The notes below the pieces were generated by a model, which was not told where the DNA came from, did not search any database, and saw only the letters and a list, made by a program, of their open reading frames with translations. The translations under genes were made by a program, and so were the position numbers. Below, in pieces: positions 10,560 through 31,605 of a stretch of 32,008 bases of DNA. How positions within the stretch are numbered: the first letter of the stretch is position 1; the number at the start of each line of letters is the position of its first letter. The stretch is from assembly GCA_000826855.1 (NCBI GenBank), contig JTLS01000096.1:1-32008 (forward strand), given 5' to 3'. Source of the DNA: Basidioascus undulatus (Eukaryota).

Positions 10560-12302
10560 TCGACAAGGTTTTTGTAAGGAAGACGAGGTGAGGCGAGTAA
10601 GTGAGATGGAGTCGGGAAGGGAGCGACGAGCCTCGCTCAAGGAGTTCGAGTCGGCTTGCAACGTGCTGCAGAGGGCCGTTGAGCCTACCGCGTACCCAAT
10701 CAGCCAGAATTTGACGCCAACGTAAAGTATATCAACTAAAGGCTCTCATAGGTAAGCGTCGAGATCGCCTAAGTTGTTTCCATAGAGGGCCTTAATCGAC
10801 TGCGGCAACTGCTGCATGCAGCGCTCATGCAAGATGCGGCTTCAAATCAATGACTGAGAATAGAACTTCTGGTCGTGCATGTTTAATTTTTTTCTTTTAT
10901 CTTATGCGCCGTACATAACAAGAAACTCATCCAACTGAAAGTAGGTTGCGGTGCGCACCACTGTGCTAAAGCGACGAGGAAATGTAGGCTCAAGCCCCGC
11001 ACGATTCCGAGTGATGCTGCACCGGTGCGAACTAATGGCCTGTCCGGCTTGCCAGACTTATATCAGATCCTGGCTGAAAAGGAGCTCTTACTATCCCCCA
11101 GGAAACTTTGATACAACGCCCCCGCAGTCTGATCTTTCGGAGCAAGACGTTCCACTCACATTCACAGACTTTCAGCTCGCGCGGCGGGTGTTACGCAAGC
11201 CTCAACCCCTCGCTCCACCCAAATTTATCTAGTATTGGTTTAGGGAATTTTGTCCTCAGCTAGAGTAGAACCTGTCTCGTGAGCCGTGTCTGTAATTCAC
11301 ACTGCAGGTCAATGCGGTGAGCTCCTAGCTAGCGCCCATTGGGCGCATCCGAAAAGGACTTTGATATGCACCAACATGTGTTCAAGTCTCTATACGCTTT
11401 AGATTAACTTCTATTCACAGCCTAAAAGAGTATATATTCAACGCATTCCCCGGTATGCAGTGGGTTGATTATGGGTCAATAGGCACCATGGAAACTCTTC
11501 AGCAATGATGAAGACGTGTCAAGTGCTGGATCAAGTCCGAGAGCTCACTTCGATGCCCTGACCACCTAGTTTGAAGGGCAGCGTTTGTCCCGAGGCTGGC
11601 GCAAGGGGTGGACCGTCGGCGGAGGACACCCAGTCAGCCCTCGTGCTCTCGTTCCTTCTGCGCCGTCATCATAAGAAGCTCATTTCAAACACTCAGGATC
11701 TAATGTTCTCTCTACCCCTAAGCTACCTCAAAATGCTCCCCAACACGAAGGACGGCCCAGCGACTCCAGACAACAGCGAGCCGTCCAATCGCCCGACCGC
11801 TTGACGGCAGAGCAATGCGTCGCCCTTCCGCGCTCAGCTCACAGCGTCGATCGCAGAGGCGTACCTGAGCGCCATCAACATCCGGGACCAACACTGACTC
11901 TATGCGAACTGCCGAAAATTCACCGCCTGCACATCATTTCCAGATTGTAACAGTTGCGGGAGGGCCAAAGAGACTTGAATCATGTTCGGCTGCACTGGGC
12001 CCGTGCAGCGTTCACGCGTTTCACTGCAGAATGCATGGCAGGTTCAGCTTTGGCGTGCTCTGAACTGAGATTGCCCCACCGTATCCTACCACTCGAGCAA
12101 TTATATTACTGATTGTTGTGCAAGCTCGAATTTGGTGCCAGAGATCAAGTGGACACTGAAGAGGGTCTTCTCTTTGGCGCTCCCCTGGTCCACGTTGAAG
12201 TGCTCCCGGTCGGCGGGGCACCGCATCGCGTCCCACACGCGTCTTCCCTCTTCCCTCTTGCCTTCTTCCAGTTCCGCACTTCACTTGATCGCTACTGATC
12301 GC

Positions 12303-13879
12303 ATGGCGTCTTCATCGTCGCTACAACAATCTCATATCTCACCCCCAGCGGCGGCGCCTAGCCGGTGGACGTTCACCCAGGGTCTCCTGCTTGGGCAGCT
12401 CTCGTTCTTCGTTCTCCTCATTCTCCTCCTTCGCTATTTCATTTTCGAAGACGCGGATGCCGCGCTCGAGAATGAGCGGAAGCGAGTCCGTCTTTCGATC
12501 TTTGCCATCCCTCCGTTCCGCTCCCCGAACCTTCGACTTATCTCACCCTCGCGTCCTTCAGCGACTCCGCCGAGCCCCGCATCCCCCTTCCTCCCCTCGT
12601 CTCCAACAACGCCCACCCATTCTCGTGAAGACGTCATACGACCTCTCCACGCATGCTCCCGAAAGCACCGACTGGTTGAATGTCCTCCTCGCGCACGCGT
12701 TCGTCGGATACCGTGATGAGCTGCGCCGGGAGGGACGCGTTGTGCTAGAGGAAGCGCTCAATCGCGGAGGAGCGAAGGCAGGAGGGGTGTTGGTGCGTGC
12801 TGGTTTTGAGCTTGGGAGAGTGGCGGGAACTGATGGGCGATCTTGGAGTGAGCAGGACAAGATCGTAGTGACCGAGGTGGACTTTGGAGAGGGCTTCCCG
12901 CTCTTCTCCAACGCGCGGATCCGACCAGCCGACGACTCTGGGCGTATGGTTCGTCTCCCAACTCTTACTTGCCGGCTACCTCCGTTCCTTCCAGGCTTGC
13001 AGGCTGATCATTTGCCCCTCATCTTCGCTCCAGCGCGCCGAGATCGACCTCGACTACTCCGACCATCTCTCCCTCTCGCTCGAAACCAAGCTACTCATCA
13101 ACATTCCCCGCCCCCGGTTCGCGGTGCTCCCAATCGCGTTGGGCCTTCATCTCGTTCGTTTCTCCGGGACAGTACGTCACCCCAACCCTCCCCTTTCTGC
13201 TCACCCTTTTTCCACTTCCCACTTCCCACTTACTCTTCTGGCAATGTAGCTCTCCATCGAGCTGCACCACCACTCCCCCACCACCACGCCGCAGAACAAC
13301 GTCCGCCTCTCCCTCCACCCCGACTTCCGTCTCTCCCTCCGCTGCACGTCCCTCCTCGGCAGCCGCGCAAAGCTCCAGGACGTGCCCAAGGTCGAGCAGC
13401 TCGTCGTCTCCCGCCTGCGCGCGTTCGTCGGCGACCGCATGGTCTGGCCGCGCTACTGGCGGGTCGGATTGCCTGGACTAGGTAGGGGTATGAAGAAGGA
13501 GCCTGCTGCGCCGGAGGAGGCGAAAGCGGAGGCGCCGGCACAGGCGAAGGCGGATTCGGAAGCGCAGGGGCCGGTGGCAGGCGAGGGTGAGGTCGAGGGA
13601 GAAGAGGTCTGCGACGACGCGATGGTTCGCGCGCTGGAGGAGATGCAGAAGGAGGTTGGGGAGGGGCTGAGGAGGCGGGCGAACGCCGCGTCCGCTGCTG
13701 GGGGAGCTTCCAGCGGCACACCGGGCACGGACAACCCATCAAGGTCTCCGGGGTCTACGCCCGCGCCAGCTCCGTCGCCGCCGGGCGTGTGGTCCCCGCC
13801 ACCGAGTTTGAGCATGCCTGGCAGCGTCGCGGGCTGGAGCGCGGGCGTGAGTGCTGCTGCTGCGGGGAGCGGGTCATGA
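12303..13879 (+). CDS. MMM1: ERMES subunit Mmm1 (maintenance of mitochondrial morphology 1; TM helix + SMP domain), 424 aa
   Basis: Exons 12303-12485, 12562-12792, 12856-12948, 13034-13171, 13250-13879; all four introns are GT-AG and phase 0. Hallmark motifs: WTFTQGLLLGQLS..RYFIF, ESTDWLNVLLA, FPLFSNARI, ETKLLIN.PRPRFAVLP, SLLGSRAKLQDVPK. Confidence 0.96.
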
Positions 13880-17259: not shown

Positions 17260-18738
17260 TCATACGAGCCCGTCGTACAAGCTGAGCGCTTGGACGATCG
17301 TCGGGTCCTTCTTCGAGCCTTCGACACTGCACAACCACAATCACATCCATCACCACCGTGTGTCAGCACGCGAATCGCAGTGAACGCGCCGAAGATGCAG
17401 AGTGCGTAGGAAGCGCAGGGAAGGGGCGGACGGGACGCACAACTCCTCAAAGTCCAACCGCGCGTTGTGGTCCTTGTCCATAGCGCGGAAGATCTTGTCG
17501 ACGCGCTTTTCGGGCGTGTCTTCGTCCTCTGGCCTGTGGGACGTCCCAATTACAATCGCAATCGCAAGTCCAACCAGCGTCAGGCACAGCAGGTGGGAGA
17601 AACAGAGGGAGAGGGAGGAAACGCACAGCTTGACGATGCTCCCGCTCATGAGGTAGATGCTCCGCACGATCGTGAGCATCTCGTCGTACGTGATTGTCCT
17701 GTTACAGGTCGCCGCGACACCCAGTCCAACGAGGCATGCATTATCAGAAACCGTCTTGCGCTGTGAGGTGGGTGTGCAGAAAGGCCAGGACGCACCCGTC
17801 TTGATCGATATCGTATCTGCCCAGGCGTGCCACCACGTATGAGCATTCGATCGCTCCCGGAAGAAAGGCGGGAAGGGGAGGACGAGAGAAGGCAAGGCGA
17901 TACGCACAACTGGAACGCCCACTTGAGCTTCTCGTCCAGCTTGCCTCGAGAGGTAACGCTCAGAGCGGTCAAGAACTGTCGTCGCAGAACCGCGAACTAC
18001 TTTTCAGTACCTCCCTCAGCTAGTACCCGAAGAGTAGTGCGCACCTCCCGGAAGTTGATCTTTCTGCAGCGGCCGTCGCTCCAGCGTGTCAGCTAGGACG
18101 AGAGAGGCTGGGACGGGTACAGGAAGGCCACGGACCCGTTCCCGTCTTTATCAAACACTTTGAATACGTGCTTTGAGAACTCTGCCGGGTTGCCGAAGGG
18201 GAAGAACTGGGGGTGAGGAGTGGGGTCGAGAGCGGGGTGTCAGTAAGGGCACGGACACGGAGTGGCTGCTTCGTGCGCCGGCCTCATCCCTCCGGCCTCA
18301 TCAAGCCAGCTTGCACCGCTCCTCCCGGGGCGTCCACGTCGCTCCCTTGCCGCCCCCTGTCTGTCGATCATCCCCTCCGCCGCCCTGCATTCTTCAAGCC
18401 TCCCCACTTCAAAACTCACCTGCTTGTAGATCTCCGAGAACGCCTTCTCGTCCAGCTCCCCGCTCGGGCAGTCCTTGTGGAAGCCCTTCCACCTGTCGTC
18501 CACCACCCATCATCGCCGCAGGCCGACCCGTCCACCAGAATCAGCATGGCCTTCTCCCTACCCCTGTGCGTGGCCGAGACCGACCACTGCTGGATCTCCT
18601 TCTTGTCGACTGATCTTCCTCACCCGTGATCAGCACACGCGGGAAAGAAAGGGAGGTGGGAAGGCCGGACGAACAGTACGTCTCCTTGAGCAGGTCGTCC
18701 AGGTCCCCTGGCGGCATCTTTGACGATTTGTTGCCCAT
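17260..18738 (-). CDS. NCS1: Neuronal calcium sensor-1 / frequenin (myristoylated EF-hand protein), 190 aa
   Basis: Exons 18738-18675, 18609-18585, 18492-18420, 18206-18136, 18063-18045, 17975-17908, 17816-17796, 17698-17627, 17533-17441, 17326-17260 total 573 nt (190 aa + stop). Motifs: MGNKSS myristoylation site, [62 protein letters not shown]. Confidence 0.98.
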
Positions 18739-21392: not shown

Positions 21393-24075
21393 CTACCTCC
21401 CATTCCCCCTTGGCAAGCACCGATCAACCAGCAGGCCTTCGAACGATTCCCTGAGCGCATCGATCGTCCGGGGCGCGCTCGGACGTCCGCCCTCGACCGT
21501 GGGCCGCATGGGCGTGCTAGGCGGGGAAGAGGAGGGGGGTTCGTCATCTTCGACTGCGCGCGCCGAGGCCCGCACGACCGTCGTGTCTGCGCCGTAGCGC
21601 ACGGGACCAGACGAGGTCGAGGGCGTGATGGGGTTCTTGTCGATCTGATTGGGTAGGCAGGCGCGGCGGTGAGCGAGAGGACGCGGGAAACAGGAGCTGA
21701 GGAACGAGGGAAGTGCAAACGGAGAACGCACCATATCCTGCCAAGTCTTCAAAAAGACACCCGGGCCGACCTGGGTCCCCTCCTCTTCCTTTCCGCCCGG
21801 CGCCAGCAGGACGCGCATCTTTTCCCTGCTCTCGCGCGCTGCGCGCTCCATGTACTCTGCGTGCGTGTCGAGCTCCTCGCGCACTGCGGCCTGCGTGTCC
21901 GCGTCGAGGGCGCCGAAGAGCGCGAGGAGGTCGGGCGAGAGGTCGCCTGCTCCTCCTTGGGCGGCGTCGTCCGAAGGGGAGGAGGAAGAGGGAGGGGAGT
22001 TTTGGCGGTAGAGCGGGAGACAGTGGCGGTACCAGCCAAGGTAGGCTTTGCGCTGTAGGTGACGTTGCGTCGTGTTAGCGTGCGCGAACGGTGGGGAAAA
22101 GCGGGAGAAACAAGGGAAAGGCGTACCATCTCCGGCGAGTTCTTCGCCAGAGTATGCAAGAACCGATGCAAGTCTCCCTGGTGTCTCCCAAACAGCGCCA
22201 GGTAGCTCTTGGGCCCCTCCCGGCGCTTCGCAACCGCGAGCATGTCGTCCAGGAAGCTCTGGAGGTCGCGCAGCGCGGCGGAGAGGTCGACCGCCTTGTG
22301 CAGGCGCCGGATGAGCGGCTCGAACGCCTTCATTGCTGCGCGCACGCCCTCCGAGAGCAGGTCGGGCGTCGTGCTCGTTAGCGCTGTGAGGAGGCGGCTG
22401 CGATCGCGAATTGCGAGGTGGAGGGAGAGGTAGGCGAGGCTAAAAGCGGAGATGTGAGCTAGTAGAGGGGAAGGAAGGAGGGAGGGCACGGACAGGTTTG
22501 TATGGTCGGTTTCGGACTCGGTAGGAGGCGCGGACTTCAGGAGTAGGATGATAGCCACGATCGACTTCTCCTGCTCGGCTGTGTCCCCATCCAACGCAAT
22601 CGCACCGCACCCTTAGTCCCGCTCTTTCCAGCGAGCACGACGAAAACGAGACACACCGCTCTGCCGTCGAATCTCCATCCGTTCCTCCCGGGAAGCCTCC
22701 TCGACATACTTCAGGATCGCCGCGCGCTGCTCGGGCGTCCCGCACGGCCCGCTCGCGGACGACTCAAGCGCCTTCGTTTGCTTGATTAGGTTCGACTTGT
22801 CCTTCTCGAGGACGGAGGAGATGATCCTGAGAAATGAGAGGTAGGGGATGAGCGGGTGCGGTTTGGAGGGAAGGCGATGGAACGCACTGCTGCATTAGGT
22901 TCTGCCCCGACCCGAAGCCGAGTGCGCCGAGCAGTCCGCGGGAGAGGAAGATCTTGAGCACGCCGGAGACCATGGTTGCCGCGTTCTGTTCGTACAAGAC
23001 GGACACGTCAGCAAGGAGAAGACGAAGGGTGAAGTGAAGAGGAGAAATAAACGCACCGCGACTCGCGCCGCTTGCGCTACGAGCCCGTACGGTAGCAGCC
23101 CGTGCACGCGCTCAATGAGCGAGAGGGTCGAATGAGCGCAGGGCGATAGAGTGAGCATGTAGTGTAGGAAGCTTGCTAGACTGCGAGAAGAGAAAAGGAG
23201 GCCCTATCCATCGCGTCAGCGCCCAGTCTACGTCCACCAGGTCCGTTCGTATGTCCCGCTGTTTCGCACTCACGTAGCAGCCGCATACTGATGGCTTGCC
23301 CTGTACAAGCTCGGCAGCTCCTCGAGCTTGTCCGTCTTGGACACCCACGCAACGAGGTCCTCTGCGCCGTCGCCCCATACGAGCGACTGCAGGAAGTCGT
23401 CCCACGCCCGAAGGACGTCGTCGGGATCTTCGGGGTCGTACGGCGTGCGGTCGGTGGGCTCGGGTTTGGGCGAGGGGGTGCGGGAGGGGCCGGAACGGGT
23501 TGAGAAGCTGGGAGATGAGGAGGAACGGGGAAGACCGCCCAGGACACCGCGGAGAGCATATTCGGCCTGCAGGTGCAGATCGGGGCTTGTGAGGAGGGGA
23601 TGTGGAGAGGTGGGGAAAGGAAGACGAACCACTACGACCACCCCTTGCCCTAGGATCTTGCGCTTGCCGAGCAGACCCTTATCGTATGAATCTGACAGAT
23701 CCTACAGGACGCGCGAATCACTCAGTCCACCTCCATCTCTCCATCTCCGCGCCTGCGGTGTCTCCCGGTCCCGCAGTCTTGCGACAGACTCACCTGCTCC
23801 GCAAGCCTCTCCAGCAACCCCTGCACCTGCACACTCCACACCTCCTCCGGCGCGTCCCGAAACCCCGGCAAGCTAAGCGCGAGCTCGCGGAACATGTAGT
23901 TGAGGGCCGGACTGGGGCGCTGCTTGGGCGTGTCGGGGCCCGGCTTGAACGGAGGGCCGGAGCAGGATGTTCGGCCGGGGTACTTGAGCGACGTGAACTC
24001 GTGCAGGGTTTGCTGGTGCGTGAGGATGTCCAGCAGAGCGCTAAGCTGCGCGGACGTGAGTGCTGGGGCGGTCAT
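21393..24075 (-). CDS. PX-associated domain + DUF3818 family protein, 687 aa
   Basis: Exons 24075-23794, 23701-23630, 23566-23274, 23180-23057, 22985-22888, 22826-22657, 22578-22127, 22052-21732, 21644-21393 total 2064 nt, all GT-AG. Motifs: LTSAQLSALLDILTH..EF, DLSDSYDKG..GKRK, LASFLHY, HGLLPY..NAATM, GQNLMQQIIS, LIRRLHKAVDLS, GPGVFL..WQ. Confidence 0.9.
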
Positions 24076-24474
24076 CGTGCGGCAATTCGGAGGGAAGGCG
24101 GGGGGATATGGATGGGGTTGAGGACGCGATGGGAATAATGATATGTAGAACTGAAGTTGGTTTACGCGCGTGAGGGATTGCAACAGAAGAATGTAATGGC
24201 CTTTTGATGAGGGCCCGATAAGTATAGGTGGATAATGTAAGCCGAAGAGAAGGAAGTGGTCAAAGGGCAGGAGGCGATGGGCGGTGCACAGCCAAGGCAG
24301 GCATCAGGACCTGGACCGGCGAGGCCGAGAGAACGCTTGCCATATGCGAACGTCGTCATGCTGCCCCACAATCGCTGTGCCTGCAGCCTGGGTGACATAC
24401 AAAAAGCTGCGTTGGCTGTGCTGAGAACACACATTTTTATTGCTGTTACGACTGCGCATGCGGGGCGACGGGCC

Positions 24475-24482: not shown

Positions 24483-26190
24483 CCTCAAGCGGTAGTTTGG
24501 GATGCTCAGCGTGCCGCGCGTCTGCGATGGGTGCTGCAGAGTCGGGCTGTGAACTGCGACGTCTCCTTTGGTTTAGCCAGGAAATCAATAGCAATGCTGA
24601 GTCGGATAGCAAGACTGGTGCTACGGTTTCAGGAAGGGGTGGATTGTAGCCAAGCAGTTGGCGGCGGACATGCTGCGGGTCTGAATGCCATGTTTGCTTG
24701 GCACATAAGCATGAGGCGCCTTTGAACGGAAGGGTACAGCCAATACAATGTTCTGCTGTTACTGATGGTGATTTGCTCACCCTAGGAGAGCTTCGGTTGC
24801 GGAAGTAAACACTTTGGGATGGTGCTTACAAGCCTGTTGGAAGCTTGGGCGAGGGCCAAGCAAACCCATCGACAACGCAAGACATACCCTCGCTCAGGCT
24901 CCTAGCTCTTGCCCAACAGATGGTCAGTTTGAGAAGTCTTAACACCAAAGGTCTAACAGGAACAAGAAAAGGGAGACAATGGGAGGAGGACCATGCCCTT
25001 CAAGGTCAATTTTGCCAAATCGGCGCGCAAGCAGTCTCTGCAGCTTTCTTCAGAGACTTCAGAGAAGCGACTAGACGTCTGGGCATAAAATAGATTGTCT
25101 GGTGCGGAGGTATAAAACAAGGACTGTTCAATCCCTGTAACAGAAAATGTAGAAACCGGGTAAGCTGCAGTGTCTTCTTTCAACGTCGCCGCGGAACCCG
25201 GTCCGGGCTGCAAAATGTACTTTTTTGATGACTAAAGGAGACATTCCACTGGATTGTGTGAGCTGTTGAGTTTACCCAGCAGTTCATCGTTAGAATGCCG
25301 AACCTTGCACAAGAGTGCGAGAACGAACAACTCGCGAGTTTGAAACCCCGCAAGCGCCGCGATTCTTGCCTCGAGAGCATCAAGCCCAACAAGGCAAAAA
25401 TATTAGGGAGGGCCGAGAACACACCAAGTACTTCTAACACAAGACCGGCAAGCTGCAGACTCAAGTATGAGGGGAAGGCGGGCATGCAAGGGAACTGCGA
25501 GGGATTCGCAACCCTTCCCACTCCCTGTCCTCTTCCCAGAGAGTCTCCTGGGACAGAACTGTTGGCTGTTTACTGTAGGGATATCCCCAACCTTACACCT
25601 TCTCAGTGTCCCCACTCTCTTGACACGCCGCCTTTGCACAGCCAAACGGCACAGTGTCTCTCGCACTACCAGTTGCCACAGCTGCCACACTCGCACTTCT
25701 GCTTGGAACCCGTTGAAGGTTGTCTGATTCACCACGTACAATATAATGGGACCATTAAAAATCATTAGAAATTCCCGGTAGCTTACTCTTGCCCTATTCC
25801 CGCTTGTCCTGGCACATGCAGGCACTCACCGGCTTGGCAGCAATTTCTACACACCCCCGCTCCTCAAACGTGCTCCCTCCAGTTCCTAGGTATTCTAAAG
25901 GTTCAGGTCATAAACGATCGCTCCTGTAAGCGTCTGAGAAACCACTGGAAGAACACACCCGAAAGAGCGGAAATGGCACCTTGGACGCAGCCTCCTCACG
26001 TCCCGCGGTTGCGGTTGTAGGGTTCCCAGACTGTGTTATAGCCGTTCAGGGGGTTTCAATCTCATAACAATTACATCTGAATCCGAATATACTCATGAAT
26101 GGTAGACCGATGGGATACTCGCTTTGTTGTAGGTCATGAGGTGCATTTCTAATTAGTTAAAAAAATTTCTGTGAGAGTTTCCACAGAAAC

Positions 26191-26272
26191 TCTTTGGTAG
26201 TATAGTGGCTAGTATATCCGCTTGTCATTAACAATGGCGCGGGCGACCCGGGTTCAATTCCCGGCCAGAGAG
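26191..26272 (+). tRNA. tRNA-Asp(GUC) with a 10-nt intron
   Basis: Acceptor stem TCTTTGG/CCAGAGA plus discriminator G; A-box TAGTATAGTGG; anticodon arm TCCGC-TT GTC A-[TTAACAATGG, 26228-26237]-C-GCGGG; T-arm CCGGG-TTCAATT-CCCGG. Confidence 0.97.
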
Positions 26273-26276
26273 TATC

Positions 26277-27178: not shown

Positions 27179-29632
27179 ATGGTGAACGCCCTGCTCGCCC
27201 TAACACTCGCACCCTCGCTCGTCTCAGCCTCGCCGTTCGGATGGGCCAACTGGGGCAATTGGGGTGGTGGCGGGGCGTGGGACTGGTGGAAGCCGCGCCT
27301 TACGCCCGAAGCGTATCAGAAGGAGCTCACGCTCAACGGGTTGCTCACCCACTCGAGGGCACTCGCCAAGTTCGCGGCTCTCAATGGAGACAACCGGGCT
27401 TTCGGTGAGGCGTTGCTTGCTTTAGATTAAAAGGATCCTGTGCTCAAGAAATTGTTTTGGTCTTGATTGTTTTAGGAACCAAGGGCTACAACGAGTCTGC
27501 GGACTACGTCGAGTGGATTGTGCGTCTTTCGAGCGTTGCCTTGCCTGGGTTGGCAGCACATCATACTCATCCGCAGAGACGCCTGATTTAGGCCAAGAAC
27601 AGCGGTCTCGACGTTTACCGGCAGACTGTCATTTACCCCGCCTCTAGCATCTTCAGCAACTCGCTGGTGGTGGAAGAAACCAACATCACCAATTTAACGA
27701 CCTTGTGCATTGCATCTTCATTCGATCTCATCGCTGATGTGTCAAGAGCTGACAGGCTGTTCACAGCCAATGTCCGCGTTCTGGATTGCCCGGCTATTCA
27801 TTCGTTCCTCGGACTGACTGTACACTTCCACAGACTCCGCCGGCACTCCGCCCGAGGGTGTCACTGCACCTCTCGTGCTCATCCCCCAACTCGGCTGCAC
27901 TGCAGCGGACTACGCTGCTGTATCCCCCGCCGGGAAGATCGCGTTCGTCAAGCGAGGGAACTGTACCTTCATCGAAAAGGCACAGTTGGCTAAGGCTGCG
28001 GACGTCGCGGGAGTGGTGATCTTCAACAATCTGCGTGCGCCGACCTTTGTCTGCTTTCCTTTTGAGCTCCACTCTTTCTGACTAGCAGTCACTGCGCTGG
28101 GTTACTTTCCACAGCGGGCGGCCCAGTCGCCTCCCGAATCGACTCGAACTACTCGGCCAACCCCCCTACACTGTCTCTCGCACTCGAGAGCGCCGAGCCG
28201 ATCGTTGCGCGACTGAACGTTTCCGAGCCGGAGGAGGTCGTCGCGACGCTTCAGATCTCTGTGCTCAACGAGCAGCGGCCCGGCGACAACGTGATTGCAC
28301 AGACAAAGTGGGGAGACCAGGAGAAGGTCGTCTTTGTCGTACGTGCTTTCCGTGGAAAGTAGTAGTCTGGGTGCTGATCTGAGCGGAGCACAGGGCGCTC
28401 ACCTGGACTCCGTGCCGGCTGGGCCAGGCATCAACGATGATGGGGTGAGTTTTTCTTGACTCTCCTGGGATCGGCCGCTGAACCAAGTGGACTACAGTCA
28501 GGCACGGGAACTTTAGCCGAACTTGTCAAGCAGATCTCTCGCTTCCGCTCTGCAAAGAACGCTGTACGCTTTGCTTGGTGGTCGACCGAGGAAGTGGGGC
28601 TTGTGTGAGTGCTCTGAAAGTCTTGAACTCTGAATGCAAGCTGATAACACTGTCAATTGTGCAGCGGTTCGAAGTACTACGTTGAGCATTTGTCCCGTGC
28701 GTCATGTGTGCTAGCCGGTGGGCAGCAGGGCTGAGCTGAAATTGCGACTTTGTGACTATTAGAGGAGGAGCGGGCCAAGATCCTGGTTTACATAAATCTT
28801 GACGTAAATATTATTTCCAAATGTGCTACTCCGTCTATTGAGCTCCTTGCTGACCTATGCCCCTCCAGATGACTGCCTCGCCCAACTACAATACGTCCAC
28901 GATTCCTCTCAACTTTTCTTGTTCCATATCTGACACAGTCCTCCTCGGCTAGCACTCATCGGGATTCACGACGGAGACAATTCCACGGGCACCAATGACG
29001 CCCCCTCCCCGGCGGGCGGCCTCGCGCTCGAGGTCCTCTTCCAGAACCACTACGACAGCAAGGGGCTTCCGCACACAGCTTGTAAGATGGAAAAGTGTCT
29101 CTATTTGTGGGGAGAATTGCAGCTTACGAGACTTCACAGACGCTTTCACCAGCGGGAGCGACTACCGTGGCTTCCTCGACGCCGGCATCCCAGCCGGAGG
29201 GGTGGCGACTGGAGCTGGCGGACTGAAGACGGCTTACGAGGCGGAGCTCTTTGGCGGAGAGGAAGGGGTGGCCTAGTAGGTATCTCGGAAGCTGAATTTC
29301 CTCTGTACCGGCTAGCTCAAAGTGCTCTACCATTCAGTGACGAATGCTACCATCGACTTTGCGACGACATCGACAATCTCGCGCACGACGCGTATGTGTG
29401 GAATGCGCATGCAGTGGCGGATGTGATTGCTCAGGTGAGTGCATGCTCTTTGTGTCGACCTTTCCAGTATTGAGATAGTGGTGTCCAGCTGGCAAACGAC
29501 GCCTCTCCGATCGAGGAAGAGCAGGCGCTCGCGGCACGGGGAATCTCAAGAATGGCAAAGCGCGAGCCTGGACAGGAGGACTACGTCTCGTACCTCGGCC
29601 ACGTTTGCAACCAACCTCATGACGAACTGTAA
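27179..29632 (+). CDS. Secreted/vacuolar aminopeptidase Y-like M28 metallopeptidase with PA domain, 522 aa
   Basis: Exons 27179-27404, 27476-27519, 27592-27704, 27767-27771, 27834-28034, 28115-28338, 28394-28444, 28498-28604, 28665-28696, 28763-28803, 28869-28890, 28956-29081, 29140-29275, 29338-29434, 29489-29632 total 1569 nt. Signal peptide MVNALLALTLAPSLVSA; NRAFGTKG; PA motif GKIAFVKRGNCTF; Zn/catalytic motifs GAHLDSV, GINDDGSG, TEEVGLVGS, NLDMTASPNY, SDY, CYH. Confidence 0.95.
27767..27771 (+). other. 5-nt microexon (CCAAT) of the aminopeptidase gene
   Basis: Flanked by ..GCTGAC..TTCACAG and GTCCGC, between two 62-nt introns. Needed to keep frame: ACC TT|C CAA T|AC TCC = T-F-Q-Y-S. Confidence 0.85.
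28891..28955 (+). other. Putative non-canonical AT-AC intron (65 nt) with U2-type signals
   Basis: 5' end ATACGT, branch CTGAC at 28930-28934, 3' end ..TAGCAC. Removal gives MTASPNY-IIGI-HDGD. Confidence 0.7.
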
Positions 29633-29842: not shown

Positions 29843-31605
29843 CTAGCTTACTATGCATACTGAAGGATGTTGGAATACATGTTCAATCCGGAGCCACGAC
29901 GACATATCGACTCCCGCCTCAGACCGTTTCGCCTGCATACAACCCAACGACGTTGGGAGAACGTAGACTGTCTTTGTAAATGGACGCCGTCGATGCGTTC
30001 TGCTTAATTTCACCTTTCCCTTCATCACTGCACGTAGCCTGATGCGTCGGGCAACTATCACCGTCACCGGCACCGCCGCCGCAGTAACGCAGATGTTGAC
30101 CAAGGCTTGTGCAAACCTTCCTCGAAAGCCTCAACTCGAGTCCATATGTCGGGAGAGCAGGTATCGGGACTGAGTGTGGACGTACATGGACAGCTTGGCA
30201 ACTGCAAGGATAAACCTAATAGTGCTCGCCAGTTTGCAGCAGAAAGACAGTAGAGCAGTATAGATAGAGATTGTGAATGTGTCATTCTGCAAACATCAAC
30301 ACAGGCAGTTGCTCATTCTCGGAATTGGTCTCGCCCGCCCACATCGAAGACGGGACTTACGGATCGGGCCCCAAGTATCCAAAGGCGTACACGCCCGACG
30401 CGCCTTCGAAAGCTCCATCTAGCGGGACAGCCCAGGTCAACCCACGTGCGCAAAAAAGGGCAGGGCTATGAAAGTTCTCACAGAGAAGGAAGAGGATCAG
30501 AGAACGCAAATACTCCAGTCGATTACGCCGTCCACACGTTTGTCGAGAAGATGTTGGAACGATGACGCCAAACACCCCTAAGGACCGCGTTTGTCAAAGA
30601 GCTTTTTGGCAGCTAACTTCAAATAACTTACAAGTAGCAATGAAGCCCCCCCCCTAATATCAGGACTGCTCCCCAAGTGGCTCTGCTACGCCGGTTCCAG
30701 CGCGAAACATCCAGAAGAATCCCCCTGTAGCACAGATTTGGAGGGAAATGTGGATCAGACAAAGGCCAACCCGACAGATCGGTAGGGGAGAAATTCAATA
30801 TGCAGCGTACGAAACAGGAAGGATAGCAGCTGCTGCGACGCTCCGATGTAAGAAGGATTGCAGTCTAGAAGCCAGGTTCTCTAAAACTGACTTACCGCTC
30901 TTACCCGGACCGAATAGTAAGATCCATTCCAGCTCCAGACGTAGGCGAGGGAAAATTGGAAGAACTGCAAACCAAGGGCAGAAAGTGTATTAGCCTGTAG
31001 GGATGGAGGCGAGCAGACCAGCAAAGGCAATAGCAGTCTAGAACGGAAGTAGAGCAGGTTATTGTCAGATGAAAGTCTCACAGGAATTGTAAAACAGAGT
31101 TCATCGCACTGAGTGTCTCGTTCCTTCAGTACCACCTGCGCCAAAGCTGTCCATTCTTCTGCCCAAGTACGATTCTTGGGGATAACAACTTTAGTGCCGT
31201 CAGAGCTCAAAATAAGGCCACTGGTTTGATAAAATCATTAATGATGTGCGGGAAATGTCTAGTCCACAAACAGGTGCACTCACGGCCGGCACAACAGGCA
31301 GGCGAACGGCAGGCCACAAGCACCAATAGCGATTATAACAGCAGACGTTGCTGTGGTGGGTTTGCTTGAGCCTCAGCTGCGGGTTCGTCCGAACGCTTGT
31401 GGCACTATTTACTTGTTGAGATTGACTCTGCCACAGCCGTATTGGTAGATAATGCAAGGGCCACGATGCCTCCAACAGAGGCGCCGATTCTCTGGAGCGT
31501 GAAGTGAGAAGGTCGAGGACAGCTGCAGATCCCCTCCGCTCAACGACTCTGAGAAGGTATACCTTTTCTCCCTTCTTCCTGTTTCACTCTTCCGTCCCAG
31601 AGAGG
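29843..31605 (-). pseudogene. Decayed UNC-93-like (DUF895) MFS membrane protein gene, 5' half missing from the window
   Basis: Ordered motifs: EEGRKG, QRIGASVGGIVALALS, IIAIGACGLPFACLLCRP, SDGTKVV..TWAEE, WNGSYYSVRVRA, GILLDVSRWNRRSRA, IDWS, LFLLYGAFEG, QALVNICV..VP. Many GT-AG intron remnants, several frameshifts, and an abnormally short 31-nt intron (30895-30865) that leaves the frame broken. Confidence 0.75.

Follow-up and report, generated by a model that had tools for sequence, protein, structure and literature searches.

The stretch 28891-28955, which lies inside an otherwise intact aminopeptidase gene, is probably a spliceosomal AT-AC intron removed by the major (U2-type) spliceosome, an intron of "type II". 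A U2-type AT-AC intron had been proposed here in a preliminary description, and the removal of 28891-28955 is supported by the protein comparison, the codon statistics and the donor sequence. The splicing of the RNA at 28890/28956 is what we infer from the protein comparison, and the spliceosome responsible is likewise an inference. Dependence on the major spliceosome is suggested by the Agaricomycete affinity of the gene product together with the account of fungal minor introns excerpted from PMC10639083.

The aminopeptidase gene and its splice signals

The gene was identified within the window, the whole stretch of 32,008 nucleotides that was analysed. The PA-domain exon matched Pfam PF02225 with an E value of 8.1e-17, and one M28 exon by itself reached 20.2 bits against the Pfam cut-off of 21.3. 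The full model was aligned over its entire length with proteins bearing PF02225 and PF04389, which indicates a PA domain inserted in the M28 catalytic domain. The homologue set came from a full HMMER search that used the PA exon as query and from a search seeded with its match P0031; word-indexed protein searches with single exons as queries gave no matches. The best blastp match of the gene product was P0176 (59% identity over 494 aa). The 59% level is that of Agaricales proteins, and the closest homologues are Agaricomycete proteins, with Asterophora parasitica, Hypsizygus marmoreus, Tricholomella constricta, Pterulicium gracile and Rhizoctonia/Ceratobasidium among their sources. A Pfam comparison of 106 long ORFs from the window named three neighbouring genes.

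Apart from 28891-28955 the gene is intact. The frame is open from the ATG to the stop codon at 29630-29632 without a break, and the C-terminus is HDEL. The gene product keeps 83 of the 84 columns that are invariant among its 21 closest homologues. The catalytic and metal-site motifs, which the preliminary description had called intact, are all present: HLDS (H, D), NDDG (D), EE, NLDM (D) and CYH (H). Their key residues are invariant in alignment A1, and the zinc ligands are presumably to be assigned among them. The same description had given the other 13 introns as GT-AG and a length of 65 nt as typical for this gene. Both statements agree with the gene model, in which 13 of 13 are GT-AG and span 53-80 nt. 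The coordinates are collected in Table 1.

Table 1 Features of the aminopeptidase gene and of the proposed AT-AC intron.
Feature	Coordinates	Strand	Description
PA-domain / M28 aminopeptidase gene (aminopeptidase Y-like)	27179..29632	+	15 exons, 14 introns; 522 aa
Micro-exon CCAAT	27767..27771	+	5 nt; flanked by 62-nt GT-AG introns 27705-27766 and 27772-27833
Intron 10	28804..28868	+	GT-AG, 65 nt; CTGAC, with 15 nt from branch A to the 3' end
Exon 11	28869..28890	+	22 nt; MTASPNY and base 1 (A) of the junction Ile codon
Proposed U2-type AT-AC intron	28891..28955	+	65 nt, phase 1, 68% pyrimidine, 48% GC
5' splice site ATACGT	28891..28896	+	As the local GTRNGT consensus, but A at +1
Rival GT-AG intron, GTCCAC...CACAG	28895..28938	+	44 nt, in frame
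Branch-point-like CTGAC	28930..28934	+	Branch A at 28933; 22 nt from there to the AC at 28955
Competing AG, context TAG	28951..28952	+	3 nt upstream of the AC; adds one residue
Proposed 3' terminal AC, context CAC	28954..28955	+	Read from the sequence
Exon 12	28956..29081	+	Bases 2 and 3 (TC) of the junction Ile codon, then IGIHDGDNSTGTNDAPSPAGGLALEVLFQNHYDSKGLPHTA

The signals described at the outset, ATACGT, CTGAC, the AG at 28951-28952, the AC at 28954-28955, the following TC ATC GGG and the length of 65 nt, were all read in the sequence. The 3' end of the stretch reads CTAGCAC, and exon 12 then opens with TC ATC GGG at 28956. Within the other introns, the branch A of most clear CTRAY sites lies 14-20 nt before the 3' end, with one at 33 nt. 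The length of 65 nt and the distance of 22 nt between branch A and 3' end fit these introns.

Donor and acceptor matrices (PWMs) were built from the 13 introns of this gene only (n=13), because the Pfam yield of the window was too small for more intron models. With +1 and +2 omitted, the ATACGT donor context scored 1.79 bits, and the other 13 donors scored -2.84 to 4.52 bits in a leave-one-out PWM. Apart from +1, ATACGT matches the U2-type 5' consensus of these introns. The acceptor contexts scored +3.4 bits for the AG at 28938, -4.0 for the AC at 28955 and -9.04 for the AG at 28952. The suggestion that GTACGT is a common donor was only partly upheld: the gene uses GTACGT at 1 of 13 donors, GTGCGT at 2 and GTGAGT at 3. 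A crude window-wide count of hexamers followed by CTRAY..YAG found GTGCGT most often (8 of 29 sites), with GTACGT at 2 of 11.

The window contains one match to the pattern ATACGT..CTRAY..YAC where 0.17 would be expected, and at least one match was obtained in 15 of 100 shuffles. The looser ATRNGT..CTRAY..YAC is also matched at 29993, outside any gene. The signal string by itself is not beyond chance. What is beyond chance is the position of the string: its two ends coincide precisely with the bases at which the reading frame, the conserved spacing and the conserved Ile are all recovered.

The protein block at the junction

Exon 11 reads ATG ACT GCC TCG CCC AAC TAC + A and matches LDMTASPNY in relatives. 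Excision of exactly 28891-28955 gives NYIIGIHDGDNSTG, in which the junction codon A+TC is Ile (ATC). A MAFFT alignment was made of 137 homologues, whose rows span Streptomyces to Agaricales. Two of the 137 rows are truncated proteins without the block, and the counts use the remaining 135. The block D-M-x-x-S-P-N-x-x-x-x-x-x-D-G-D is ungapped in 135/135 covering rows, and the block is spaced identically in keratinase KP1, whose structure is solved (8ac9). The four-residue spacing SPNY-IIGI-HDGD, on which the preliminary description had relied, is therefore that of every homologue covering the block. At the junction, P0175 reads NYIIGIYDGDNSTG, and P0178 and P0185 read NYIIGIHDADNSGG. Ile occupies the junction column in 20 of the 21 closest homologues, the remaining one having Leu, and it is also the commonest residue of that column overall (45/135).

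The three in-frame options had been correctly listed beforehand as AT-AC (65 nt), AT-AG (62 nt) and GT-AG (44 nt). The AT-AG option gives SPNY-TLIGI-HDGD, and the GT-AG option 28895-28938 gives SPNYNTPPRLALIGIHDGD. When the three isoforms were scored with an HMM of the 137 homologues, the values were 634.5 bits for AT-AC, 627.2 for AT-AG and 620.0 for GT-AG. Only the 28890/28956 junction reproduces both the invariant spacing of the family and the residues of the relatives. The junction Ile is placed in a loop shortly before a short strand in the AlphaFold model of the homologue P0176, and to judge from this model an insertion at the Ile would not obviously be excluded by the fold. The orthologous intron was sought in metagenome contigs with two degenerate-motif scans, one with MTAS[PT]N[YH] joined to the following exon across a gap of intron size, and one with the exon-12 motif alone; 0 loci were found.

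In the mechanism that we propose, ATACGT would still offer positions +2 to +6 for pairing with U1 and, subsequently, with U6 snRNA. The CTGAC at 28930-28934 would supply the branch adenosine, with a C/T-rich spacer after it. The exons would be ligated at the AC at 28954-28955 because a first-base A has C rather than G as its partner at the last base. The same pairing of first and last bases would disfavour both upstream AGs (28938 and 28952). The mRNA would join 28890 to 28956 through ATC (Ile) and encode ...INLDMTASPNY-I-IGIHDGDNSTG..., and its product would be a PA/M28 aminopeptidase of conserved form, retained in the ER (HDEL).

Rival junctions and a possible splice-dead allele

The weak canonical GT-AG pair 28895-28938 might be used instead, so that NTPPRLAL would replace the single Ile with a net gain of seven residues. 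This is unlikely, although the pair is in frame, leaves no stop codon and has canonical dinucleotides. Its acceptor CACAG is the best-scoring of the three and ends many introns here, and the 17 nt that would be kept (28939-28955) are 65% GC, a value that resembles the exons (64%) more than the introns. Against this, an insertion at this position is found in 0/135 homologues, and the HMM score is 14.5 bits below that of the AT-AC isoform. The eight codons that would replace Ile look non-coding, with a score of -2.27 bits in a coding-versus-intron test. A score of -2.27 or lower is found in only 0.4% of the 8-codon CDS windows of the gene and a score of -2.27 or higher in 29% of intron windows, with the test trained on the same CDS as its calibration. 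The GC3 of these codons is 2/8 against 0.73 for the gene. The preliminary description had seen no good GT donor; a GT is present at 28895 (GTCCAC), but it scores poorly, at -2.59 bits without +1 and +2. At 44 nt the intron would fall below the minimum of 53 nt among the 13 others, and the AG lies only 5 nt past the branch A of the only CTRAY site. The exact restoration of the conserved sequence by the AT..AC pair would have to be pure coincidence.

A splice-dead allele or a young pseudogene is likewise improbable. Here the intron would not be correctly removed, and its retention would give a stop codon. A change of G to A at +1 is a classic splice-killing mutation, and the retained intron does hit a stop, the TAG at 28950-28952. 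However, no decay is seen elsewhere: there are 13 clean GT-AG introns, the frame runs from the ATG to the HDEL-stop, and the invariant columns are kept as given above. Both end bases are changed, moreover, to exactly the pair known to cooperate, for which a single hit would be insufficient. The gene is otherwise intact, and two random changes in a decaying gene at exactly both terminal bases would therefore be unlikely.

Also unlikely is an intron of 62 nt at 28891-28952 that ends with TAG and gives NYTLIGI. Either A28891 would be a miscall or one allele of a GTACGT...TAG intron, or an AT-AG intron would be spliced, and the AC would be coincidental. This reading is in frame and needs one odd base where AT-AC needs two, and TAG is a canonical acceptor found in 3 of the 13 other introns. 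It would nevertheless bring in a one-residue insertion seen in 0/135 homologues, and its HMM score is 7.3 bits below that of the AT-AC isoform. Its acceptor context is the poorest of the three, and the exact conserved Ile and spacing obtained from the AC 3 nt downstream would be left unexplained. Moreover, a +1 A with a last-base G is reported to be blocked at exon ligation (Parker and Siliciano 1993, as cited in an excerpt of PMC5029451).

Further splice pairs were tried and rejected. Both GT 28895 to AG 28952 (58 nt) and AT 28891 to AG 28938 (48 nt) break the frame. If the 65-nt gap is shifted by -1, +1 or +4, its ends become AA..CA, TA..CT or GT..AT, none of which is a known class, and AT 28891 to AC 28934 (44 nt) would use up the branch site.

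Spliceosome type and known AT-AC introns

The branch box of U12-type introns is TCCTTAAC-like and usually lies within about 10-20 nt of the 3' end. No such box was found near the 3' end of 28891-28955. The pyrimidine-rich TTCCTCTCAAC at about 28903-28913 faintly recalls it, but is some 40 nt away from the 3' end. The U2-type features of the stretch are its CTGAC branch site, its pyrimidine content of 68% and the lack of a U12 5' box and branch box. An snRNA search of the window found none and one tRNA only, and 32 kb says little in this respect. At the 5' end, ATACGTCC departs at +4 to +8 from the U12 consensus ATATCCTT, as the consensus is given in a passage of PMC5029451. The closest homologues are Agaricomycete proteins, and the part of PMC10639083 cited here reports no convincing minor introns in Basidiomycota and most minor snRNAs as absent. 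Since the 5' end is unlike the U12 consensus and Basidiomycota are reported without minor splicing, U2-type (type II) is the best reading. A U12-type intron removed by the minor spliceosome, with which 28891-28955 has only the terminal dinucleotides AT and AC in common, is extremely unlikely.

U2-dependent (type II) AT-AC introns are documented, for example in human SCN4A and SCN5A, and they account for 24 of 610,067 introns in SpliceRack (both from excerpts of PMC1557818). The proposed intron shares with this class the AT and AC ends, a U2-like rest of the 5' site, an ordinary branch site with a pyrimidine stretch, and the lack of a U12 5' box. According to a passage of PMC5029451, metazoan type II introns have a strong /ATAAGT consensus, whereas 28891-28955 has /ATACGT, in line with the GTRNGT or GT[AG]CGT donors of the gene and window around it. 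It further differs from the metazoan examples in its 65 nt and its basidiomycete host.

Similarly, AT-AC introns have been annotated in fungi. In gene models of A. niger, P. chrysosporium and T. lanuginosus built with RNA-seq guidance, 0.03% of introns are AT-AC, as stated in an extract of PMC4084796, and in Coprinopsis cinerea AT-AC is among three accepted intron classes in the text available from PMC12230235. Fungal xylanase genes are hypothesised to carry type II AT-AC introns (excerpt of PMC1557818). Like 28891-28955, these annotated introns are short, have rare AT-AC ends and belong to hosts reported to lack the minor spliceosome. As far as these excerpts go, the fungal reports are genome-wide counts or concern different genes, unlike the single intron here. 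No description of this intron or gene was found in a literature search that was not aimed at this gene family.

Yeast offers a comparison in a host with the major spliceosome only. An engineered AT-AC intron in yeast actin is spliced (Parker and Siliciano 1993, as cited in the quoted part of PMC5029451), and the same part of PMC5029451 describes endogenous AT-AC junctions in yeast RPL30, a side product of 1-2% with an atypical 5' site. The rescue of a first-base A by a last-base C is shared with these cases. Unlike the RPL30 side product, the AT-AC junction of 28891-28955 alone yields the conserved protein.

The preliminary description had also proposed that the AT-AC ends may have arisen by compensatory change at both ends, and that the tandem AG/AC acceptor may be regulatory. 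In a more far-reaching reading, the AT-AC ends might be old and selected in the lineage, either as an ex-U12 intron that switched to U2 recognition when the minor spliceosome was lost in Dikarya, or through a choice among CACAG (28938), TAG (28952) and CAC (28955) that tunes the level of functional aminopeptidase mRNA. The chance of this is slim. Since type II AT-AC introns are already described and are counted at about 0.03% of introns in the fungal annotations excerpted above, the class is a known one and no new question is opened. If confirmed, the intron would be a clean natural example of the rule of A first and C last in a fungus with only the major spliceosome. A gene finder that accepts no introns but GT-AG and GC-AG ones would disrupt this gene or introduce a false insertion.

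The same gene model also contains a micro-exon of 5 nt, which is separate from the AT-AC finding. Its inclusion yields TTFQYSA; P0175 and P0182 have the identical string, and six close homologues have TFQYS.

Gene model and junction at the protein level

The aminopeptidase gene model was built from the reading frames and from tblastn of P0031, a homologue named in the database as a Peptidase family M28 protein of Ceratobasidium sp. AG-Ba. The predicted protein has 522 aa and ends with HDEL. One exon matches the Pfam PA domain (E 8.1e-17), and a short M28 exon scores slightly below the Pfam cut-off. The PA exon, used as query in a full HMMER search, returned 600 proteins at E <= 0.001 (best 150 listed), and the search seeded with P0031 returned 555 matches among 8000 candidates (120 listed). 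Identity was 59% over 494 aa with the homologue P0176 of Asterophora parasitica, 54-59% with other Agaricales proteins, and about 50% with Rhizoctonia/Ceratobasidium proteins. These matches place the host among the Agaricomycetes. Among the matches listed, the 21 closest homologues share 84 invariant columns, of which the model retains 83. As the preliminary description had stated, the catalytic motifs are intact (HLDS, NDDG, EE, NLDM and CYH are among the conserved columns), and each of the remaining 13 introns is GT-AG. These introns are 53-80 nt long. Judged from its sequence, the gene looks functional.

Features of the aminopeptidase gene, the candidate intron region and the neighbouring genes
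Feature	Position	Strand	Remarks
MMM1 (maintenance of mitochondrial morphology) protein gene	12289-13876	+	Pfam PF10296, split over three frames
ORF with EF-hand match	17353-18003	-	Pfam
PX-associated protein gene, ORF pieces	21396-24303	-	PXB (PF12828, E 4.9e-23) and DUF3818 (PF12825)
tRNA gene	26190-26273	+	Rfam tRNA, 47.8 bits; ~900 nt upstream of aminopeptidase ATG
PA/M28 aminopeptidase gene	27179-29632	+	15 exons, 14 introns; ATG 27179, stop 29630-29632
5-nt micro-exon CCAAT, aminopeptidase gene	27767-27771	+	between introns 27705-27766 and 27772-27833
Exon before candidate intron	28869-28890 (22 nt)	+	ATG ACT GCC TCG CCC AAC TAC A
CTGAC in candidate intron	28930-28934	+	sequence read
CACAG in candidate intron	3' end at 28938	+	sequence read
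CTAGCAC in candidate intron	3' end at 28955	+	sequence read

Three in-frame splice choices exist at the candidate intron, the same three that had been listed beforehand. AT-AC splicing (28891-28955) gives NY-I-IGIHDGD, AT-AG (28891-28952) gives NY-TL-IGIHDGD with one additional residue, and GT-AG (28895-28938) gives NY-NTPPRLAL-IGIHDGD with seven. Intron retention leads to a stop codon.

The alignment comprised 137 homologues, namely 18 of the 19 motif-bearing proteins from the PA-exon search and all 119 new proteins from the P0031 search. Excluded were P0068, a fragment of 274 aa, and the 131 PA-exon-search proteins that lack the motif, most of them fragments or other proteins with a PA domain. 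The conserved spacing claimed for this family was verified: 135 of the 137 rows are gapless over the 16-column block D-M-x-x-S-P-N-x-x-x-x-x-x-D-G-D, and the other two are truncated proteins without the block region. Within the 135 rows covering the block, no insertion or deletion was found in any homologue, bacterial or fungal. The same spacing is found in the solved structure of keratinase KP1 (8ac9). The AT-AC product, NYIIGIHDGDNSTG, is a near letter-for-letter match to the relatives, which read NYIIGIYDGDNSTG in the homologue P0175 and NYIIGIHDADNSGG in P0178 and P0185. Among the matches listed, 20 of the 21 closest proteins carry Ile at the junction, and one carries Leu. Against an HMM of the 137 rows, the AT-AC, AT-AG and 44-nt GT-AG isoforms score 634.5, 627.2 and 620.0 bits, respectively.

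In the AlphaFold model of P0176 (mean pLDDT 85), the NLD aspartate lies at the end of strand 337-344, and the junction Ile (352) is placed in a confidently modelled loop immediately ahead of the short strand 354-356. The modelled fold alone would not forbid an insertion at the junction; an insertion is disfavoured by the complete absence of length variation in 135 sequences.

Splice signals and competing introns

Direct reading of the window bore out the earlier account of the region. The intron upstream of the 22-nt exon is normal, with the 3' end CCTCCAG. The exon is followed directly by ATACGTCCACG and a C/T-rich body, and position 28955 by TC ATC GGG ATT CAC GAC GGA GAC. The candidate intron has 65 nt, 68% pyrimidine and 48% GC, compared with 64% GC in exons.

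The splice-site matrices were derived from 13 introns, all of this one gene. With the two terminal bases omitted, the donor context ATACGT scores 1.79 bits and GTCCAC at 28895 scores -2.59 bits; the other donors range from -2.84 to 4.52 bits (leave-one-out). From established snRNA pairing, ATACGT would keep the U1/U6-pairing bases +2 U, +3 A, +5 G and +6 U, and GTCCAC would keep only GT. The single CTRAY site has its branch A 22 nt before the AC, 19 nt before the AG at 28952 and 5 nt before the AG at 28938. Clear CTRAY sites in the other introns are mostly 14-20 nt from the 3' end, with one at 33 nt.

The AT-AC stretch noticed earlier was confirmed, and a U2-type AT-AC intron at 28891-28955 is the best explanation, a probable one for which the comparative evidence is strong. 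Use of the 44-nt GT-AG intron is unlikely. Its CACAG acceptor has the highest context score among the three candidates (+3.4 bits; -4.0 for the AC), and the GC content of the 17-nt stretch 28939-28955 is as high as that of the exons. Against it, this intron would be shorter than all 13 others, with a weak donor, an AG only 5 nt from the branch A, and a seven-residue insertion absent from the 135 homologues. The eight codons replacing the junction Ile score -2.27 bits in a coding-versus-intron test with a codon table that had this same CDS as its training set; scores this low occur in only 0.4% of the gene's 8-codon CDS windows, and scores this high or higher in 29% of intron windows. GC3 of these codons is 2/8, versus 0.73 for the gene. 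A splice-dead allele is similarly unlikely. A 62-nt intron that ends in TAG, its A at +1 being an error or an allele, is about as unlikely, given its extra residue absent from the 135 homologues, its lower HMM score and its acceptor context of -9.04 bits.

The string ATACGT..CTRAY..YAC occurs once in the window versus 0.17 expected, and 15 of 100 shuffles of the window contain at least one match. Taken alone, the signal string is weak evidence. The looser pattern ATRNGT..CTRAY..YAC has a second match at 29993 (+), where it begins ATGCGT; this site lies in the 3' flank, outside the visible coding exons, and shows that chance alone can produce the bare string. The evidential weight comes from position: AT and AC fall on precisely the two bases by which the frame, the invariant spacing and the conserved Ile are all restored. 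Among the four possible registers of the 65-nt gap, compared by hand, only the AT-AC register has ends of a known class.

Spliceosome type and known AT-AC introns

A U12-type intron is hardly credible: ATACGTCC mismatches the /ATATCCTT box (consensus as quoted in PMC5029451), and no U12 branch box is present near the 3' end. A pan-eukaryotic survey found neither Ascomycota nor Basidiomycota to have convincing minor introns (PMC10639083). The candidate intron is best read as U2-type for these reasons. The only Rfam family in the window is tRNA, and 32 kb says little in this respect. Parker and Siliciano (1993, as cited in PMC5029451) reportedly found in an engineered yeast intron that a first-base A works with a last-base C. 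The first-base A of the candidate intron may pair similarly with its last-base C during splicing, which would account for the non-use of both upstream AGs. Two motif scans of metagenome contigs found no orthologous loci.

U2-dependent AT-AC introns (type II) form a rare, established class; PMC1557818 counts 24 among 610,067 introns in SpliceRack and mentions earlier suspicion of such introns in fungal xylanase genes. Other sources give AT-AC as 0.03% of introns in fungal gene models built with RNA-seq guidance, among them those of the basidiomycete P. chrysosporium (PMC4084796), as an accepted class beside GT-AG and GC-AG in the long-read annotation of Coprinopsis cinerea (PMC12230235), and as less frequent in annotations of fungi than in animals and plants (PMC7072748). 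The metazoan type II consensus is /ATAAGT and the candidate is /ATACGT; the sole difference is the donor flavour of its own genome. A general literature search found no description of this particular intron, and no claim of absence from print is made.

Micro-exon and neighbouring genes

Without the micro-exon, the sequence ...NLTT-F-Q-Y-SAGT... could not be read; two close homologues have the identical TTFQYSA, and six have TFQYS. Gene models of Coprinopsis cinerea contain micro-exons of <=15 nt in about 9% of cases according to PMC12230235, so that CCAAT represents expected biology, easily missed by gene finders. The donor downstream of it is the unusual GTCCGC.

The GT[AG]CGT type of donor is common here: the aminopeptidase gene has two GTGCGT donors and one GTACGT, and window-wide no hexamer precedes branch and acceptor signals more often than GTGCGT. 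Ten of the 13 GT-AG introns end in CAG, five of these in CACAG. The MMM1 gene has one clear intron, GTGCGT...CTGAT...AG, at 12793-12855. ARAGORN called the tRNA gene as tRNA-Asn of 84 nt with anticodon att at position 38, which suggests that the tRNA has a short intron and that the anticodon call is doubtful.
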